From positions 1 to 64,000 of the forward strand of contig CAWKAR010000026.1 of the NCBI GenBank assembly GCA_963847625.1: a stretch of 64,000 nt of DNA, written 5' to 3'. The DNA comes from a candidate division FCPU426 bacterium. GTDB taxonomy: Bacteria > Oederibacteriota > Muellerivitia > Muellerivitales > Muellerivitaceae. The notes beneath the pieces are model-generated. The model made no database searches, had not been told where the DNA came from, and worked only from the letters and a program-made list of their open reading frames with translations. The position numbers were made by a program, and so were the translations under genes. Numbering within the stretch: position 1 is the first letter of the stretch; the number at the start of each line of letters is the position of its first letter. This document shows, piece after piece, positions 11,036-61,836 of the stretch.

Positions 11036-14000
11036 TTAACGGTTCATCAAGACTTTCAAGGATTTTTTGCTTCGCACCCCACTGGCCGGATCCTTCCATT
11101 CCAATACCAACAGGTAAAGGCCGGAGGCTACCACTTGCCCATTCCGATTCTTCAAATCCCAAACCACACTTCCCTTTACCAGCGGCAATATCCTGATTAA
11201 TTCACCGGTCAGGTTGAAAACCCTCACATCCACCTGGCCAGCAAGGGGTAGACCGCCCGAGGAGGCCGTGATCTGAACCAACCCACCGCCTCGTAATAGA
11301 TTGGGTTTGGCGGTAAAGAGAATAGTTCCCGCTGACCCTTCCCCAACATAGGCGTTTTCCGAAAGGATGCCGGGGTTCCCACTGGAAACGGTTTCCTGGA
11401 GGACGAAATGGTAAAAACCGCTCGGAACCGTCTTCCCGTTCTGGCCAGCGCAATTCCAGCCAACAATGGCCTGGCCGTTCAAATAAACGGTAATGGAGCC
11501 GCCCAGACTGGAAGGGTTGGGGACGAACTTGGAAAGTTCCAGGGTAAAGACCGTGCCGGCTGAAAACACTCTCTTGCCGCAAAGGGTGGCGACTTGTTCC
11601 CCTCTTTCATCGTAAATCCAAATCAACTGCGGACAACCCGCGGCGCCCTGGGTCGGTGTGGGGGTACCTGTGGAAGTTAAGGTCGGGGTAGCCGTGGGAG
11701 TAAAGGTAGGAGTTGAAGTTGTGGTTGACGTAAGCGTCGGTGTGTTCGTGGACGTGTTAGTTGACGTATTCGTCGGCGTATTCGTTGACGAGTTGGTCGG
11801 AGTGTTCATAGGAGTGCCAGTCGGAGTATCCGTTGGTGTGTTAGTGGGTGTCAAGGACGGGGTATCGGTATTAACCGGGGTCAGGGTCCCTGTGTCTGTT
11901 AGGGTCAGAGTCGATGTAATTGTATTTGTAGGACTGTTCGTTGGAGTTTGAGTCGGGGTATCCGTGGAAGTAAAGGCAGGAGTTGAAGTTGTGGTTGACG
12001 TAAGCGTCGGGGTGTTCGTGGGCGTGTTAGTCGAGGTGTTAGTGGGTGTAAAAGATGGTGTATCGGTATTGACCGGGGTTAGGGTCCCTGTATCTGTTTG
12101 GGTCGAAGTCGATGTAATGGTATTTGTGGGACTGTTAGTTGGAGTATGAGTTGGGGTATCCGTGGAAGTAAAGGTAGGAGTTGAAGCTGTAGTTGATGTA
12201 AGTGTCGGAGTGTTCGTAGGGGTGCCAGTCGAAGTATCCGTGAGTGTGTTAGTGGGTGTAAAGGACGGCGTATCGGTATTAACCGGGGTCTGGGTTCCTG
12301 TGTCTGTTCGGGTCGGAGTCGATGTAATTGTATTTGTAGGACTGTTAGTTGGAGTATAAGTTGGGGTATCCGTGGAAGTGCAGGTAGGAGTTGAAGTTGT
12401 GGTTAACGTAAGTGTCGGAGTATCCGTGGACGTGTTAGTCGGTGTCAGCGTGTTAGTGAATGTGTTAGTAGGGGTGTTCGTTAGCGTGTTGGTCGGTGTA
12501 TTCGCAGGTGTATTTGTTGATGTGTTCGAAGGTGTACTGGTATTGGTTTTTGTGGATATATTCGTTGGTGTATCTGATGGAGTATTCGTAGATGTATAGG
12601 TCAGCGTATTCGCGGGGGTGTTGGTAGGAGTATTGGTCAATGTGTTTGCTGGGGTATTCGTTGGTGTGAGAGTAAAGGTGTTAGTGGGCGTATTCGTTGG
12701 TGTATTAGTTGGAGTATCACTAGAGGTATCAGTGAGCGTGTTCGTCGGTGTCGGCGTATTGGGTGGGGTATTCGTTGGTGTATTTGTTGGAGTATCACTA
12801 GGAGTATCAGTTGGTGTGTTCGTCGGTGTCAGCGTATTGGTTGGGGTATTCGTGGGTGTGTTGGTAGGGGTGTTAGTGGGTGTATCCGTTGGCATATTCG
12901 TTGGAGTGTATGTCAGTGTTGGCGTATTGGTTAGGGTGTTTGTGGGCGTGTTGGTAGGAGTATGGGTGGGTGTATTGGTCGGTGTCGGCGTGTTAGTGGG
13001 TGTGTTGGTGGGGGTATTAGTAGGCGTATTCGTTGGAGTGTTCATCGGTGTCAAAGTATTGGTTGGGGTATTGGTGGGTGTATTGGTCGGTGTCGGCGTG
13101 TTTGTGGGTGTGTTAGTCGGGGTATTAGTGGGTGTCCGCGTACTGGTGGGCGTGTTAGTTGTTGTATAGGTGCGGGTGTTCGTGGGCGTATTGGTAACCG
13201 TGCTTGTCGATGTAGGCGTCGGGTTGCAATTGGCCGCATAAAATTCAATTGCCTGCATATCCGCGAGCGAAGTATTGCTCAATGTATAGCTCATCGGGTA
13301 AGTCGCGATCCCAGCAGCGGTTTTATAATTTCCTTCCGAGGAAAAACCCGGATTTGATTGTGACCATTCCTGGGTTTGGCCCGTCCCGGCCGTAAACGTC
13401 CTGTTGTTATAAACGTGGCACAAACCCACGATGACGGAGTTTTGCTGGTTCGTATTGATATTCATGGTCGGATTATTGATCGCCGTGGTTTGTTCAAAAT
13501 GAGCGGTGCTGCCAAGCGATGTATTCGGGGCAATACCCGTAAAGACTATCGCGCCAACATCCATATTTTGAGCGGCGTTGGTTGTTATCACTAGGTTATG
13601 AGACAGGCCATCCGTCGGGAGTTGGGAGCCGAATTCGTAATAAGTAAAACATTCATGGCCATTCGCGCTGTTAACCGCCAAGGCAAGTGTCAAAGCAACT
13701 CCGTTGTAAGTGGCAGCGGTGATGTTGTTGGTGTTGCTTTGGATCGCAACTTGAACGGCCAATAGTGGATTGGATAAACCGGCGGGAATCGTCAAAGCGA
13801 CCGTGGAGGTGGTTGTGTTCGCGTTGTACGCGCTTGTGGCAGTATTAAAACCGGTTGGGCATGTGGTATAGGGAGTATCAGTGGGTGTGATGGTGGGAGA
13901 TGGAGTTAGTGTAGAAGTGGGGGTCACGGTCGGAGTGCGGGTCACGGTAAAAGTGGGAGTCCAAGTAAAAGTCGGGGTCCAGGTGAGCACAGTTCCAACG

Positions 14001-42048: not shown

Positions 42049-42825
42049 TTATTTCACCAGCCGTTTAAACATGGACCGCCGGGCCACGATGACCATGACC
42101 ACCAGCCAAACCAAAAGAATCGGCACAGCCTGGGCTTGGAGCGGTAAATCCAATGCGAGGGACCGGACGATGGCGTTGACCGAGGTGAGAGGAAAGAACC
42201 ATGCTATTTTTTGAATGGCACTAGGCAGGCTCTCGATGGGATAAAAAACCCCGCAAAAGAGGAACATCGGGAAGATGAGCAAATATTGGGGATAGGAAAG
42301 CTCGTCGATGGTGCGGGAAAAACCCGCCGCCGCCAGACCCATGGCCGAGAAAAGGAAGGCGCTTAAGAAACAGACCGGTAAAAGCGTCAAAAGGCAAAGG
42401 GGATGGAAATCACCGGTCGCCACCCCGATGAGGCCCACCACCTCGGCCGCCACGGTGGCCTTGCTGGCGTCCCAAAGAAGTTCCCCCCAAAGCACCTCCG
42501 ACAAGGTAATGGGCGTGATGGCGATGGCCTGGAAAATTTTCTGGTAATACATGCGCACGAAAGCTCCGAAAGACCCTTCGAAAAAGCCCTGGAAAAGTAC
42601 GGTCTGGGCGATGATGCCGGAGAAAACGAAACTGCGGTAGGTGAGGTGCACCCCCTGCGTGGTGATGTTCCCGACGATGGCGCCCAGTCCGATGCCGAAG
42701 GAAAGCAGGTAGAAGATGGGCTCCAGGAAAGTGGTCAGCAGGTAATAAACCAGGCTCTTGATGAAAGCCGAATGGTACCTCTTCCAGACGCACCACACGC
42801 CCCAAAAGGTATCCGGAATTTTCAT
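42049..42825 (-). CDS. ABC-2 type permease (NodJ-like)
   Basis: Start MKIPDT overlaps the ATPase stop (ATGA); LEPIFYL, GVFYPIESLP. Confidence 0.88.
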   Translation of the reverse strand: MKIPDTFWGVWCVWKRYHSAFIKSLVYYLLTTFLEPIFYLLSFGIGLGAIVGNITTQGVHLTYRSFVFSGIIAQTVLFQGFFEGSFGAFVRMYYQKIFQAIAITPITLSEVLWGELLWDASKATVAAEVVGLIGVATGDFHPLCLLTLLPVCFLSAFLFSAMGLAAAGFSRTIDELSYPQYLLIFPMFLFCGVFYPIESLPSAIQKIAWFFPLTSVNAIVRSLALDLPLQAQAVPILLVWLVVMVIVARRSMFKRLVK

Positions 42826-43649
42826 AAGCCCTCCACCCCCAAACGGCTTCCGGTGAGCTTGAGGTACACATCCTCCAGGTTGGGCTTGCGCTTCCAAACG
42901 ACACCCGGCCGCACTTCTTCCTCTACTTCCTCGCGGGCGATATGCCTGACCACCAGCTTTTCGGGGGAATCTGTGTCGAGGATCTTGCCCAGATGCAATA
43001 TGGCCACCCGGTCGCAGAGCCTCTCGGCTTCTTCCATATAGTGGGTGCAAAGCAGGATGGCCACGCCCCGGCTTCTGGCCTCCGCCAGCACTTCCCAAAG
43101 CATGCGCCGCACGTCGGGGTCCAGCCCGGTGGTCGGCTCGTCCAACACCAGGACCCGGGGGTCGGAGATCAGGGCCCGGGCCACTTGTAAACGCCGTTTC
43201 ATCCCGCCGGAGAGGGCTTCCACGTTCTCCCGGGCTTTATCACTCAATCCGAACCTCTCCAAAAGATCCTTGGCGCGTTTCTTTCCTTCTGAGGTTGGGA
43301 TGTGGAAATAACTGGCGTGCAACACCAGCTGGTCGAATGTGCTGAAGTCGCTGTCCAGAGTTTCTTCCTGGTTACAAACTCCCAGGACCTTGCGTGCCAA
43401 CTTGGGATGGGTATGGACGTTGTGGCCTTCCACGAAGATTTCCCCGGATGTGGTGGGATAAAAACCGGAAATGCATTGGATGGTGGAGGATTTTCCCGCC
43501 CCGTTGGGTCCCAGGAGGCCGAAGCACTCCCCGGGAGCCACCTCGAAGGAAATGTCGGAAACAGCCGTCACTTCCACGCCCCCCCGGCGGGACTGGTAGC
43601 GCTTGGTCAGGTGGACGACTTGCAGGGGATTATAGGGAGTAGGTCGCAT
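42822..43649 (-). CDS. ABC transporter ATP-binding protein (NodI-like)
   Basis: GPNGAGKS, LSGGMKRR, LDEPTTGLD. Confidence 0.92.
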   Translation of the reverse strand: MRPTPYNPLQVVHLTKRYQSRRGGVEVTAVSDISFEVAPGECFGLLGPNGAGKSSTIQCISGFYPTTSGEIFVEGHNVHTHPKLARKVLGVCNQEETLDSDFSTFDQLVLHASYFHIPTSEGKKRAKDLLERFGLSDKARENVEALSGGMKRRLQVARALISDPRVLVLDEPTTGLDPDVRRMLWEVLAEARSRGVAILLCTHYMEEAERLCDRVAILHLGKILDTDSPEKLVVRHIAREEVEEEVRPGVVWKRKPNLEDVYLKLTGSRLGVEGL

Positions 43650-43783
43650 GTGCCAATTTCTCGATTTTAATATTTAATATAATGTAATTGGTACTATGCC
43701 AACTTCTTAATCAAATCGGCAAACTCCGTTTGCCGCATTCAAAAATGAAAGTTGGTATGTGCCAATTTCCCGATTTTAATATT
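43648..43783. repeat. 27-bp direct repeat (43648-43674 and 43757-43783, one mismatch)
   Basis: atgtgccaatttc[t/c]cgattttaatatt occurs twice. Confidence 0.85.
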
Positions 43784-43973
43784 AGCGATTATCCCCTTTA
43801 GATAAGTAATTAAATAAGGTTAAACCGCCGATCAAATCCGATGGACGCCGATAAGTTTGAAAACGCTTTGAACTATAAGCCGATATCGGCGTCAATCGGC
43901 CGTTATCGGCGGTTAAATGGTTTGACTATCGAATCTAATTTTCTTGTTTACTTATTTCAAAGGGATATTCGCC
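43784..43973 (+). mobile_element. 190-bp MITE, copy 1 (IS1595-like ends, inferred)
   Basis: Imperfect 26-bp TIRs AGCGATTATCCCCTTTAGATAAGTAA / GGCGAATATCCCTTTGAAATAAGTAA; no ORF in the track; exact reverse complement of 44137-44326. Confidence 0.85.
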
Positions 43974-44136
43974 ATATTTAAAGCCTTTTTTTGTGGTCTA
44001 TCCGAGTGCATCCCCTGAATCCGTGGCAAAGGACTTGGTTTTGCTTACCGCCTTACAGATAAAAGAATTCCTGATTTTATTTATCTTTGTTACCTGGATT
44101 TTGTTTAATTTGGACGGCAATGTATGTAAATATTAA

Positions 44137-44326
44137 GGCGAATATCCCTTTGAAATAAGTAAACAAGAAAATTAGATTCGATAGTCAAACCATTTAACCG
44201 CCGATAACGGCCGATTGACGCCGATATCGGCTTATAGTTCAAAGCGTTTTCAAACTTATCGGCGTCCATCGGATTTGATCGGCGGTTTAACCTTATTTAA
44301 TTACTTATCTAAAGGGGATAATCGCT
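44137..44326 (-). mobile_element. 190-bp MITE, copy 2, inverted
   Basis: Perfect reverse complement of 43784-43973. Confidence 0.85.
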
Positions 44327-44596
44327 TTAAATATTTATGTTTATAAATCCCATGAATCCCATGCATCCGTGGCTAGGTTTATTTTGGATAGGTGTGAGTT
44401 GCGAATTTGACTCTTTTTCTTTGATCTTCCATGGAAAATGAGTGCCAGTGGGGGCCGTTTTACCCCCTTTTCGTCGCTATTTCTGATGATTTTTCACCTT
44501 TTATCCCAATACCCTGTAGGATGTGTATTCCTTCCGGGGCCTTTAGTGCCCGGTTGGTGAAGTTAAATTTATAGTGAAAAGAAGAGGTTTCGTAAA

Positions 44597-44797
44597 ATGG
44601 TTCAAGGTACTGTGAAGTGGTTTAAGAACGAGAAGGGGTTTGGTTTTATCTCCCAGGACGGTGGTGAGGACGTATTCGTGCACCACTCGGCCATTCAAGG
44701 CGAGGGATACAAATCGTTGAACGAGGGGGACCGCGTGGAATTTGAGGTCACCCGAGGAGACAAGGGCCTAAAGGCCGAAAACGTCGTTAAGATCTAA
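44597..44797 (+). CDS. Cold-shock protein (CspA family)
   Basis: GTVKWF, KGFGFI (RNP1), DVFVHHSAI (RNP2). Confidence 0.97.
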
Positions 44798-49986: not shown

Positions 49987-52900
49987 TTATTTTAAGAGAA
50001 GGACCCGTTTGATTTTCCGGTCATAAGGCTCGACCAGGTAGAAAATATAGATCCCGCTGGCGCATGGATCCCCGAATTTGTTCTTCCCGTCCCAATGGTA
50101 GGAAGCCGCATAAGCGCCTTCCAAATACTGTTCATCCAGGGTTTGAACATGTTCCCCCGCAGAATTGTAAATTCTCAGCGAAAAAACTCCCGGGAACTGG
50201 CAATAGGAAACAAAGATCGATACCGGCCCCAAGGCCGGGTTAAATATATTTTTTGAGACGTAATACTGGTCGCATTTCGGGAGAGGTGTGACGGTCGGCG
50301 TGTCGGTGAAGGTCCCGGTAGCTGTTTTTGCGTGCGTGATGGTGGGGGTCGGAGTGGAAGTATCGGTCCAAGTAGTCGTGGGAGTTTGGGTCTTCGTGCG
50401 CGTGGGGGTATTGGTGGGGGTTACTGTCGGGGTGGGGGTCAGGGTGTTTGTCGATGTGTCCGTGGCCGTGGAGGTTTCCGTGGGCGTGTTGGTCGGCGTG
50501 GGTGTGTTGGTGGAGGTCAAGGTCGGGGTTTCCGTCGGCGTGTCCGTGGGAGTGCTGGTATTCGTCGGCGTGTAAGTTTCTGTCGGCGTATTCGTCGGGG
50601 TCAATGTCGGGGTATCAGTCGGCGTGTTCATAGGTGTGCTGGTATTGGTAAGCGTGAAGGTCGGGATCGGACTCAGGGTGTTCGTGGGCGTGTTTGTGAA
50701 CGTATACGTGAAGATGGGAGTCCAGGTCGGGGTGGGGGTGGAGGTTAGCGTGAGGGTGTCGCTTGGCGTAGCCGAAGGCGTAGCGGTGAGGGACGCCGTA
50801 GGCGTCATCGAAGCCGTCGGAGTCGGGGTAGGAGTCGAAGTCGGCGTGGGGGTCAGTGTCCGAGTCGGAGTCCCAGTTGATGTTAAAGAAACGGTTGGAG
50901 TCGGGGAGGCTGTCGCGCTATTCGTCGGGGTGTTCGTGAGAGTGGGGGTCGGCGTTGTCGTGGACGTAATCGTGGGTGTATTCGTGGGCGATGTGGTGCC
51001 GGTCGGGCTGGGGGTCGGCGTGAGCGTGTTCGTCGGCGTATTGGTCGGCGTCGGGGTGGGGGTAATGGTAGGCGTAGGGGTTGGTGTGGCTGTGGGCGTA
51101 CGAGTCGGCGTGTTGGTCGGGGTGAGTGAGGGTGTGGTCGTCGGAGTCGGCGTTGGGGTGGAAGTCAGGGTGTTGGTCGGGGTATTCGTTGGCGTCGGCG
51201 AGGGAGTTGTCGTCGGGGTCGGCGTGGGCGTGCGCGTAGGCGTGTTAGTCGGAGTATTCGTTGGGGTGGGGGTGGGTGTCGTCGTCGGGGTGGGTGTTGG
51301 CGTGTTCGTGGGCGTGTTGGTGGGGGTGTTCGTCGGCGTTGGCGAGGGTGTCGTCGTCGGGGTCGGTGTGGGTGTACGAGTCGGCGTGTTGGTCGGTGTG
51401 TTCGTCGGCGTGGGCGAGGGTGTGATGGTGGGTGTTGGGGTTGGCGTGGGTGTGTTCGTGCGGGTGGGAGTGTTGGTCGGTGTGGCTGTGGGCGACGTGG
51501 TCCCGGTCGGGCTGGGGGTCGGCGTGAGAGTGTTCGTGGGCGTGTTGGTCGTCGTCGGCGTGGGGGTAATGGTAGGCGTGGGAGTGGGTGTGGCTGTAGG
51601 CGTTCGCGTGGGCGTATTCGTCGGGGTAGGTGAAGGTGTGGTCGTCGGGGTGGGCGTCGGCGTGTGCGTGGGCGTGTTGGTGGGGGTATTCGTCGGGGTG
51701 GGTGAAGGTGTCGTCGTCGGGGTGGGTGTTGGCGTGTTCGTGGGCGTGTTGGTGGGAGTATTTGTCGGCGTCGGCGAGGGAGTCGTCGTCAGGGTTGGCG
51801 TGGGAGTACGCGTAGGCGTCCTTGTCGGGGTATTCGTTGGGGTGGGGGTGGGTGTCGTCGTCGGGGTGGATGTTGGCGTGTTCGTGGGCGTGTTGGTTGG
51901 GGTGTTCGTCGGCGTCGGCGTGGGTGTGATCGTGGGCGTCGGTGTCGGAGTGGGTGTAGGCGTTCTTGTGGGCGTGTTGGTCGAGGTGTTCGTGGGCGAT
52001 GTGGTGCCGGTCGGGCTGGGGGTCGGCGTGAGAGTGTTCGTGGGCGTGTTGGTCGGCGTCGGGGTGGGGGTAATGGTAGGCGTAGGGGTTGGTGTGGCCG
52101 TGGGCGTCCTTGTCGGGGTATTCGTCGGTGTAGGTGAAGGTGTGGTCGTTGGAGTTGGGGTCGGGGTCCTCGTTGGGGTATTGGTCGGCGTGTTCGTCGG
52201 AGTGGGTGTGGGTGTGGTCGTCGGGGTCGGTGTGGGCGTGTTCGTGGGGGTGTTGGTTGGGGTGTTCGTCGGCGTCGGCGAGGGTGTTGTCGTCGGGGTC
52301 GGTGTGGGCGTGCGCGTGGGCGTGTTGGTCGGGGTATTCGTTGGGGTGGGCGTGGGTGTGATCGTGGGCGTCGGTGTCGAAGTGGGTGTAGGGGTTCTTG
52401 TGGGCGTGTTGGTCGGGGTGTTGGTGGGCGATGTGGTGCCGGTCGGGCTGGGAGTCGGTGTATGCGTGTTCGTCGGCGTGTTGGTCGGCGTCGAGGTGAG
52501 GGTAATGGTAGGCGTTGGGGTTGGAGTAGGAGTGGGCGTCCTTGTCGGGGTATTCGTCGGGGTGGGTGAGGGGGTCGTCGTAGGGGTGGGTGTTGGCGTG
52601 TTCGTGGGCGTGTTGGTCGGGGTATTCGTCGGCGTTGGCGAGGGAGTTGTCGTCAGGGTCGGCGTGGGAGTACGCGTAGGCGTCCTTGTCGGGGTATACG
52701 TTGGGGTGGGTGTGGGTGTCGTCGTCGGGGTGGATGTTGGCGTGTTCGTGGGCGTGTTGGTTGGGGTATTTGTCGGCGTTGGCGTGGGGGTTGTGGTTGG
52801 CGTCGGAGTCGGTGTGGGGGTCGGCGTTCTCGTGGTTGTGTTCGTCGGGGTGGGGGTGGGTGAGGTTGTCGGGGTGGGGGTGGGCGTATTCGTGGGTGAG

Positions 52901-55284
52901 TTGGTGGGTGTGTTCGTAGGCGTAGGAGAGAGCGTACGGGTCGGAGTGGGCGTAGGAGTATTCGTGGGTGTGTTCGTTGGGGTGTTCGTGGGTGTAGGCG
53001 TGGGACTTGTTGTGGGTGTGGGTGTTGGCGTCCGGGTCGGGGTGTTCGTGGGAGTATTCGTCGGCGTTGGGGTGGGCGAGACGGTTGGGGTCGGACTCGG
53101 GGTATTCGTCGGGGTTGGAGTAGGTGTTCGGGTCGGGGTGTTCGTGGGGGTATTGGTCGGCGTGGGAGTGGGAGAGACGGTCGGGGTCGGAGTTGGTGTG
53201 TTCGTCGGGGTAGGAGTTGGCGTCCGGGTCGGGGTGTTCGTGGGGGTATTGGTCGGTGTGGGGGTGGGTGAGACAGTCGGTGTCGGAGTTGGGGTGTTCG
53301 TCGGAGTGGGCGTATTCGTCCGGGTCGGGGTGTTCGTGGGGGTATTGGTCGGTGTGGGGGTGGGTGAGACGGTCGGAGTCGGACTCGGGGTGTTCGTCGG
53401 CGTGGGGGTATTCGTCCGGGTCGGGGTGGGAGTTGGGGTTGGGCTGTTCGTTGGTGTAGGAGTTGGCGTCCGGGTCGGGGTGTTCGTGGGAGTATTGGTC
53501 GGCGTGGGAGTGGGACTTACTGTCGGGGTGGGAGTCGGGGTGTTCGTTGGTGTTGGTGTATTCGTCCGGGTCGGAGTGTTCGTGGGGGTATTTGTAGGGG
53601 TATTCGTGGGCGTTCTCGTCGGAGTATTGGTTGGCGTCGGGGTAGGCGTTGGGGTGTTCGTGGGCGTAATCGTAGGGGTATTAGTAGGCGTCCGCGTTGG
53701 GGTGTTGGTGGGGGTGTTCGTAGGTGTGGATGTGGGCGTCCTCGTCGGGGTGTTGGTGGGCGTGTTCGTGGGTGAAGGCGTGGGGGTCGGGGTATTGGTT
53801 ATTCCCGGGGTCGGGGTGCAAGTCAGAAGGACCATGCACGGCTCCATCCCAGTGGCGGTGTCAAAGTTGGTCCCCGAAGCATCCAACTGTTCCCGTACCA
53901 GGGTTCCATTGTAATAAAGCGCGAAAAACGGGTTTTCCTGGTTTGAAGAATTGGAGGAACAATCACCGTTGCCGGTCCCGAAATGCGACCAGTCGTCGGA
54001 AAAGTTGCCGTTGTCCATTTGCGTGTTGTTTCGCCCGTACCGGAGCATGTCGTATTGGACATACCAGTAGCCGCCATTGGGCGGGATGACGTAAGCCGTG
54101 GAGGTCGGGGAAAAGCAGTAAGTGATCATCTGGTTTGCGTAATGACCTGATATTTGCGTGCAGGGGCCGAAGGAAGCCACGGAGACCGTACCTGAAATAT
54201 TGATGTTCCCGCAGGAGGCCCCTCCGGCGGTGCAGGTGGTTCCGGCCGAGTTGTTGAGCTGCGCCATGTTGATGGTTTGGGATTCATAGGCCCAGGCCTT
54301 GACGCAAAGATTTGAGATGGTGACGGGGGTGGTGCCCCAGTTGTATACCCGGAAACCGTAATCCATATATTGGTTGTTTTGAAAATAACAGGCTGTTTGC
54401 AGGTTCAGCATGGGGGAGGTGATCCCGGGGCTGTTGCAGCCCGGCCAAGGGGTGAAAGTCGGGGTGGGTGAGCCCACTGTCGGCGTGGGCGTGAAAGTGC
54501 CGGTGGGAATGAGTGTGGGGGTGACGTCCACAGCCGGGGTGACCGTGGGCTGCGGCGTGATGGCGCAGGCGGTGCTTCCCAGCTCGAAATGCTGCCGGAA
54601 TATGTACACATCGCCCGATTGGACGCCGGTACCGTCGGACAGAAAGGCGTTGATCGCCCAAATCCAGGGCACCACGCTGCCCGAGGCTGGGTTGGTGAAT
54701 GTTCCCCAGCAAGAGCAATAAGTCGTAGTGGCGGCGGAAGTGGCGACATATGGGCCGAGCCATCCGCTTTCACTTGAGCCCGGGTTGCTCCAGCCTGAGG
54801 GAAAAAGACAGGTGGGAGGGTCGGGGGGATTATTACAGCCGCCACTGAGTATGTTGCCGGCAAACTTGGAGACCGTGCAGGTCCCATCGCTTTCGATATA
54901 TTGAGTCGTTCCACTCGAGCAGACGATGGTCAAAAGCCAACTGGCGCCGTTATGGTCGCCGGGGGCGACGTCTGCGGTTTCATCCGCGACCGCCAGCACA
55001 TTGTCCGAGGGATAGTTATTGAACAAACTGGCGGGAATGCTAGCGGTGGTAGCACTGCCATAACAGTTTCCGCTGGCACAGCCTCCAATGTAAGTGCCAT
55101 TTAGATAAACCCAGACGTCGTCGTCACCCATAAATTGAATGCTCGCGCTCGTTACGGTGCATTGTGCCTTTAGAAAGGATGGGGACATCCAACTAAGGAC
55201 CGCTAATAAAAAAACGGCGCAAAACCGGTTTAACCATGAGAGTTGAAAACGATTTAAACCGGTTTCAGAAAAATAGCGGAACAT
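49987..55284 (-). CDS. Giant secreted surface protein: N-terminal lectin-like domain, CBM3-like module, ~1180-aa Thr/Pro stalk, FlgD/T9SS-CTD-like C-terminus
   Basis: Signal peptide; [16 protein letters not shown]...FSDDWS...ALYYNGTLV...GMEP; C-terminal NIFNP...IYNSAGE...WDGKNKFG...SGIY. Confidence 0.88.
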
Positions 55285-61683: not shown

Positions 61684-61836
61684 TTTTCGCCACAGATGCA
61701 GGAGATTCAGGGGAGATGAAATACAAAGATAACCCTAAATCTTAATGCTCATGGCCTTCGGTCAGGGCTGTTCAGCCCTCAGGCATGTCTAAAAGCCTTT
61801 AAGCCATCCCTTACATCCCATTTATCCGTGGCAAAA
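61684..61836. repeat. REP-like palindromic element with ~10-bp periodic arms
   Basis: GCCACAGATGCAGGAGATTCAGGGGAGATG ... ATCCCTTACATCCCATTTATCCGTGGC; related arms at 44000-44030 and 44347-44373. Confidence 0.65.

Follow-up and report, generated by a model that had tools for sequence, protein, structure and literature searches.

Mobile elements present as two inverted copies are known to bound inverted DNA segments in several organisms. The IS1595 element ISApl4 of Actinobacillus pleuropneumoniae AP_123 (IS1016 group) occurs in many recent copies with AT-rich 8-bp target duplications and, as far as the available text of the report goes, the sole rearrangement among its 39 copies is an inversion between two closely spaced copies without their 8-bp repeats (PMC12561309). 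AT-rich 8-bp repeats are also described, in the accessible part of the source, for the IS1595 element ISEc69 (PMC7835479). In Halobacterium salinarum, an ISH8B pair on pHS3 and an ISH3C pair in 91-R6 bound inversions with 'hybrid TSDs', in which inverted copies match crosswise and not by their own flanks; the sections available describe confirmation by a split gene or mobile element (PMC7002104). For IS26/IS6, replicative intramolecular transposition in trans leads to inversion with the flanking repeats lost or displaced, and the product predicted in the text at hand consists of inverted copies, a reversed segment and displaced repeats (PMC7986276). In invertons, a short intergenic segment is bounded by short inverted repeats, of 11 bp in one example, at which a site-specific recombinase flips it and so changes expression or coding (PMC10028968).

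We analysed a 64,000-nt stretch (the window) of the genome of a candidate division FCPU426 bacterium (G000; 63 contigs, 4.43 Mb), located on the 140-kb contig C26. Within it, two copies of a 190-bp element, here called E, lie in opposite orientation around a 163-bp spacer. Judged by its sequence, the E pair is a member of the mobile-element-bounded inversions with swapped duplications. Like the ISApl4 case, it is one inversion between two close copies without direct repeats of their own; the ISApl4 report, in the text available, describes lost direct repeats, and the likeness is drawn without claiming a reciprocal swap there. The ISApl4 copies, however, are autonomous and 712 bp long and the flipped piece comprises cpxR and most of cpxA (PMC12561309), whereas E is non-coding and encloses, in flipped form, 163 bp of another miniature inverted-repeat element (MITE), here called B. 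The crosswise match is shared with the hybrid TSD cases and is confirmed here by the split MITE B, but those cases involve full IS elements of other families, kilobase-sized segments and, for ISH3C, heterogeneity at the read level (PMC7002104, available sections). The product predicted for IS26/IS6 is also alike; the accessible text shows it for autonomous IS6-family elements, whereas E would be a MITE served in trans (PMC7986276). Unlike the short repeats of invertons, the arms of the E pair are 190-bp transposons, with no recombinase near and no promoter-like site inside. The E pair departs from the published inversions in its size and its lack of autonomy, with arms of 190 bp, a loop of 163 bp and a MITE nested in a MITE. 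No MITE-pair inversion this small was found in a literature search that had most subscription journals and supplements outside its reach.

Table 1. Features of the E pair and its surroundings (positions in the window)
Feature	Position	Strand	Basis
Target duplication 1, outer copy (TTAATATT)	43776..43783	+	sequence comparison
MITE E copy 1 (IS1595 type, 190 bp; terminal repeats of 26 bp, imperfect, agreeing at 21/26)	43784..43973	+	
E hairpin core CGCCGAT (E positions 40-134), common to older sister MITE family D and relatives	43823..43917	+	
Inverted 163-bp segment	43974..44136	.	
Target duplication 2, inner copy moved by the flip (reverse complement of TTAAATAT)	43974..43981	-	
Host MITE B, larger part (~211 bp intact; ends CAYWSCYGTCCAAA), reversed versus the remainder	43974..44122	-	
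Target duplication 1, inner copy moved by the flip (reverse complement of TTAATATT)	44129..44136	-	
MITE E copy 2 (reverse complement of the first copy, no mismatches), within the AT-rich loop of host MITE B	44137..44326	-	
Target duplication 2, outer copy (TTAAATAT)	44327..44334	+	
Host MITE B, remainder with its other terminal repeat	44327..44396	+	
Cold-shock gene promoter-like block, TTCACC-18-TAGGAT, predicted, outside the invertible segment	44488..44522	+	
Cold-shock protein (csp) gene, PF00313, flanking	44597..44797	+	
ABC-2 type exporter ATPase gene, PF00005; DrrA/NodI-like but below family cut-offs, flanking	42822..43649	-	
ABC-2 permease gene, PF01061, flanking	42049..42819	-	

A preliminary description of the window had reported inverted 190-bp twins with imperfect terminal repeats and cross-swapped 8-bp flanks, and each of these points was reproduced. 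The two copies are reverse complements at 190/190 positions, and the identity extends neither inward nor outward. Their terminal repeats agree at 21 of 26 positions and differ in the first letters, AGCG at one end and GGCG at the other. As assembled, the flanks show only chance matches of 5 bp and 4 bp, but reversing 43974-44136 gives a perfect direct repeat on both copies, at a length of 8 bp only (lengths of 4 to 13 were tried). The ATCCGTGGC arms, which are located at 44019 and 44365 and are direct as assembled, become inverted once the spacer is flipped, as had been claimed. The palindrome at 61684-61836, put forward at the same time as an intact parallel, proved to be merely a loosely similar imperfect hairpin, to which BLAST of the spacer and the right flank gave no match. 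True paralogues of B elsewhere in the genome are better evidence for the flip than that element.

Upstream of the ABC gene lies a 27-bp direct repeat (26/27; 43648-43674 and 43757-43783), and E copy 1 abuts the end of its second unit. The repeat is part of a TTGGCACA/TGTGCCAA hairpin repeat that is also arrayed upstream of the ABC orthologue in G001, a genome of the same genus. Elsewhere the window holds very long Thr/Pro tandem-repeat open reading frames (49987-55284, 1765 aa; 1-1650; 11650-13100).

A search of the genome with the 190-bp unit returned nine full, identical copies of E and one interrupted by an IS1380-type element. A perfect, AT-rich 8-bp duplication flanks all seven full copies outside the locus, two of which form a tandem on C13 with three identical 8-mers; for this reason the swapped 8-bp pattern is not a matter of chance. 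E is non-coding, its sole overlap being with an incidental 54-aa open reading frame. Complete IS1595-type elements with intact 8-bp duplications are present on C49, C28 and C20 (3/3 paired autonomous elements), and tblastn revealed three further transposase-like loci. The closest ends belong to the C49 element, which departs from either E end at 4 of 26 positions on its left and at 5-7 on its right, compared with 6-9 for C28 and 8-11 for C20; the 298-aa open reading frame of the C49 element matches NF033547 with 229 bits (cut-off 75). No interior similarity of E to these three elements was found. We conclude from the duplications, the end similarity and the co-resident IS1595 elements that E is an IS1595-type MITE, in agreement with the earlier assignment: it is short and non-coding, has terminal repeats and AT-rich 8-bp duplications, and its ends are near those of C49. 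The transposase had been expected to act in trans, and the intact IS1595 transposase genes, which sit on other contigs, are consistent with this; we infer that a C49-type transposase probably moves E.

The same hairpin core is found in an older sister family, D. Its duplications have decayed further, with 7 or 8 of 8 positions matching in 4 of 10 paired copies, and the C20 element, with D-like ends, may be its parent. Copies of family D are 170-360 bp long (for example C25:177374-177626, C33:33338-33590 and C20:61347-63861), some with an extra 100-bp insert. Both families include tandems: a D-D tandem lies within a B copy (C45:3487-3995), and the E-E dimer (C13:108749-109136) has the same 8-mer between and outside its units. 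Such head-to-tail dimers would fit circle intermediates or re-insertion beside the donor. Full-length E was absent from 30 other genomes of the same taxonomic family, 8 of which match part of it, and a genome scan for the E core gave one locus, without E-type ends. E-like elements with terminal repeats occur at two loci of genome G037 (L022 and L031; 86% over positions 4-144); no 8-bp duplication is evident there by eye, and the flanks are GC-richer than in G000. Metagenome scans with the spacer end and the E interior and a genome scan with the terminal repeat returned 0 matches from sets that may omit near-identical records.

A dispersed repeat, B, is split between the first 149 bp of the spacer and 44327-44396, and the remaining 14 bp of the spacer lie outside it. 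B is ~211 bp long, with its own terminal repeats CAYWSCYGTCCAAA and the internal ATCCGTGGC hairpin; it has ~45 copies genome-wide and is also present in G001 and G011. Its duplications are 9 bp long, matching at 8 or 9 of 9 positions in 5 of 7 paired copies. The right flank has 45 paralogous hits: in 31 it continues into the spacer start as in the flipped-back arrangement (27 with the exact 8-bp overlap), 14 showed no join under the rule applied, and none follows the assembled order. When B is rebuilt by flipping, it is identical to intact paralogues at 204/211, 197/210 and 197/210 positions. The B copy at the locus has no 9-bp duplication (44123-44131 versus 44397-44405, 5/9) even when flipped back; the ABC operon and csp may have become neighbours through an earlier rearrangement at B. 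Two ideas on the origin of these repeats were discarded. A 1,444-bp element on C34, considered as the parent of B, is actually an IS30 copy within a B copy. We had also taken B or the E core to be possible GxxExxY-linked repeats, which was unsupported, one such gene being found.

Sequence similar to the locus was present in four sequencing runs, all in the form of low-depth assembled contigs (best share 0.25). Run X1 contains exact pieces of both flanks at a depth of 2-5. One of its contigs, 113 nt long, joins 44324 to 43985 on opposite strands and so represents empty site 2 in the unflipped state; its shorter side has 43 letters, 11 letters fit both sides, and the 63-nt part compared shows 0 differences. 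The closest G000 paralogues differ from the expected join at at least 4 of 113 places; a paralogue private to the X1 population is a possible alternative. A second X1 contig equals 44062-44136 exactly, a stretch unique to this locus, and continues for 11 letters that do not belong to copy 2, by which empty site 1 is only suggested in the X1 population. A joint of 43974-44345 in run X2 (85% likeness) was put aside as evidence on the locus, being probably a B paralogue. E is thus found in nine identical dispersed copies, with its empty site in B paralogues and in the X1 contig. B paralogues and the X1 contig both give the flipped-back order as ancestral, which bears out the historical flip of the spacer proposed in the preliminary description and indicates that the E insertions are recent.

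Two mechanisms had been put forward for the flip, recombination between inverted copies and intramolecular replicative transposition, and both stand as candidates. In the latter, a transposase acting in trans would copy one MITE E to the opposite strand, at a target site 163 bp distant. The same step would reverse the intervening 163 bp and swap the duplications, and the resulting inverted pair would be a neutral scar. We tentatively prefer this reading, that of a real, neutral scar of a one-step event, and hold it at just under even confidence. The neutrality of the flip in itself is very probable. The one-step route is favoured because a single event covers the closeness, the opposite orientation and the swap in a very young family; the ISApl4 inversion, likewise between neighbouring copies, points the same way. 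It is modelled by analogy on IS26 and on IS1, which also undergoes intramolecular replicative transposition. A literature search found no direct study of IS1595 transposition chemistry and, as far as the texts available to it go, no published demonstration of cointegrate formation or replicative transposition by an IS1595 element. A deletion product, that is a single E with mismatched flanks, was not seen among the seven other copies.

The alternative is that two simple insertions, by local hopping and with one into the favoured AT-rich site in B, were followed by a host-driven flip of the spacer, through RecA or through polymerase template switching on the hairpin; the segment could then flip back and would control nothing. 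We regard this two-step route as a real possibility, though appreciably short of even. Recombination between inverted copies leaves the same final sequence as the one-step route, and our narrow preference for the latter over the two-step route is itself held at about even strength. When nine independent insertions into AT-rich sites were simulated, a pair fell within 200 bp in only 0.7-1.6% of cases, which speaks for the one-step route. Local re-insertion without inversion is nevertheless visible at C13 and C45, so closeness can arise without a replicative step and is understated by the simulation; moreover, the D tandem on C45 hit the same loop site in another B copy. An intact recA gene is present (C63), and the whole inverted unit of both E copies and spacer (543 nt) can form a very stable hairpin, folding at -250 kcal/mol as single-stranded DNA. 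Published parallels exist: PacBio reads of the Halobacterium ISH3C pair, which has a hybrid duplication, include both orientations (PMC7002104), and template switching is given, in the accessible text, as a cause of spacer inversion (PMC8604942). Against the two-step route, three events are required in a very short time, since all nine E copies are identical and the X1 population shows the empty site. In addition, an inverted IS30 pair on C27 keeps matching duplications on both copies despite its 1,055-bp arms, which weakly suggests that flips driven by the host are not routine in this genome. This pair came from a genome-wide search for close inverted pairs (8 rows), from which five pairs besides E were inspected; the others were an IS30 pair on C13 cut by the contig end, an IS110-like pair, the ends of a recombinase trio and B-related arms. 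The IS110-like elements (C24:98545-102736) are inverted around one gene, which we take from the look of its sequence to be a REP-associated tyrosine transposase. A second recA-like gene lies in two frames at C23:21462-22248 (frameshift or sequence error).

A further reading shares the one replicative step by an IS1595 transposase in trans but sees its product as a newborn, invertase-free cassette, in which the perfect 190-bp arms would let the 163-bp spacer keep flipping measurably in the living population. We consider this unlikely. If true, the locus would provide evidence, at the sequence level, of intramolecular replicative transposition in the IS1595 family and would illustrate how a switch might emerge ahead of promoter capture.

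The flip could also be an artefact, the cells carrying both MITEs with intact duplications and the spacer having been written backwards by assembly or library. Both orientations share identical local junctions, and therefore only reads across both E copies can decide; among the assembled contigs of X1 and other runs, none spans the whole structure, and the as-assembled orientation is known from the assembly alone. In favour of an artefact, the duplications are intact at all seven other E copies, and the flanks fail to match at some longer repeats (4 of 36 IS30 copies and, by eye, about 3 of 9 IS1380 copies), so the assembly or the genome holds some rearranged flanks. The same repeats nevertheless argue for sound assembly. 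Within contigs lie 36 full 1,055-bp IS30 copies and 9 full 1.7-kb IS1380 copies, 32 of the former with matching 2-3-bp duplications and about 6 of the latter with flanks that match by eye, and the tandem E-E on C13 was resolved. Long repeats bridged inside contigs suggest reads far longer than the 543-bp structure. We thus hold it highly probable that the flip exists in cells and not merely in the assembly, and an artefact to be improbable. Two IS1380 copies, at C3:147121 and C39:33991, have the same left flank and different right flanks, which indicates a rearrangement or a misjoin.

The least probable reading, which we consider very improbable, is that of a selected, functional invertible switch through which the ABC exporter or the cold-shock gene would change in expression. 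The preliminary description had raised it for the shared upstream region of the two, and the segment does sit between divergent genes; moreover, MITEs can bring promoters, and Correia elements are reported to invert, in the accessible part of the source (PMC10969869). Beyond this Correia inversion, a literature search that left subscription journals and supplements aside found no MITE-built invertible promoter. Promoter scans of the locus covered sigma-70-type sites: the standard scan of 43600-44620 gave 3 sites against 3.5 expected, none in the spacer, and with a relaxed threshold, too, neither the spacer nor its junctions yielded a site, whichever way the spacer was turned. A weak site in E (9/12, chance level) is mirrored on both sides and unchanged by the flip. 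The predicted csp promoter block starts 161 bp beyond copy 2, and the csp upstream block is conserved in an alignment of 12 loci drawn from 11 genomes, this genome among them; weak ABC promoter candidates in 43650-43783 lie outside the segment, too. No Rfam match at gathering level was found at the locus, where a cspA leader match at 44424-44700 remained sub-threshold (36.5 bits; gathering 78). Of the site-specific recombinases, 0 of 18 PF00589 (tyrosine) and 0 of 5 PF00239 (serine) matches are on C26, all being on other contigs. The shared upstream region is not conserved, since in G001 csp comes directly after the esterase gene, with the ABC operon next to a tRNA on a different contig. The X1 population, furthermore, has an empty site. 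An inverton would have a promoter inside, a recombinase and an arrangement conserved in relatives, none of which was found here. As the flipped piece is part of another repeat without a promoter-like site, it is likely a transposition scar and not a gene switch.

The E pair shows no new regulatory system; it is an ordinary case of a known kind of rearrangement, if an uncommonly small and well-controlled one, with an ancestral state that can be read in three ways, from the duplications, from the 31 paralogous joins and from the empty site in a sibling population. Inverton callers that work without reads could take such MITE pairs for switches. Together with the ISApl4 case, the E pair hints at an ability of IS1595 transposases to invert the DNA next to them, and E and its co-resident transposase offer a compact substrate for testing such inversion.
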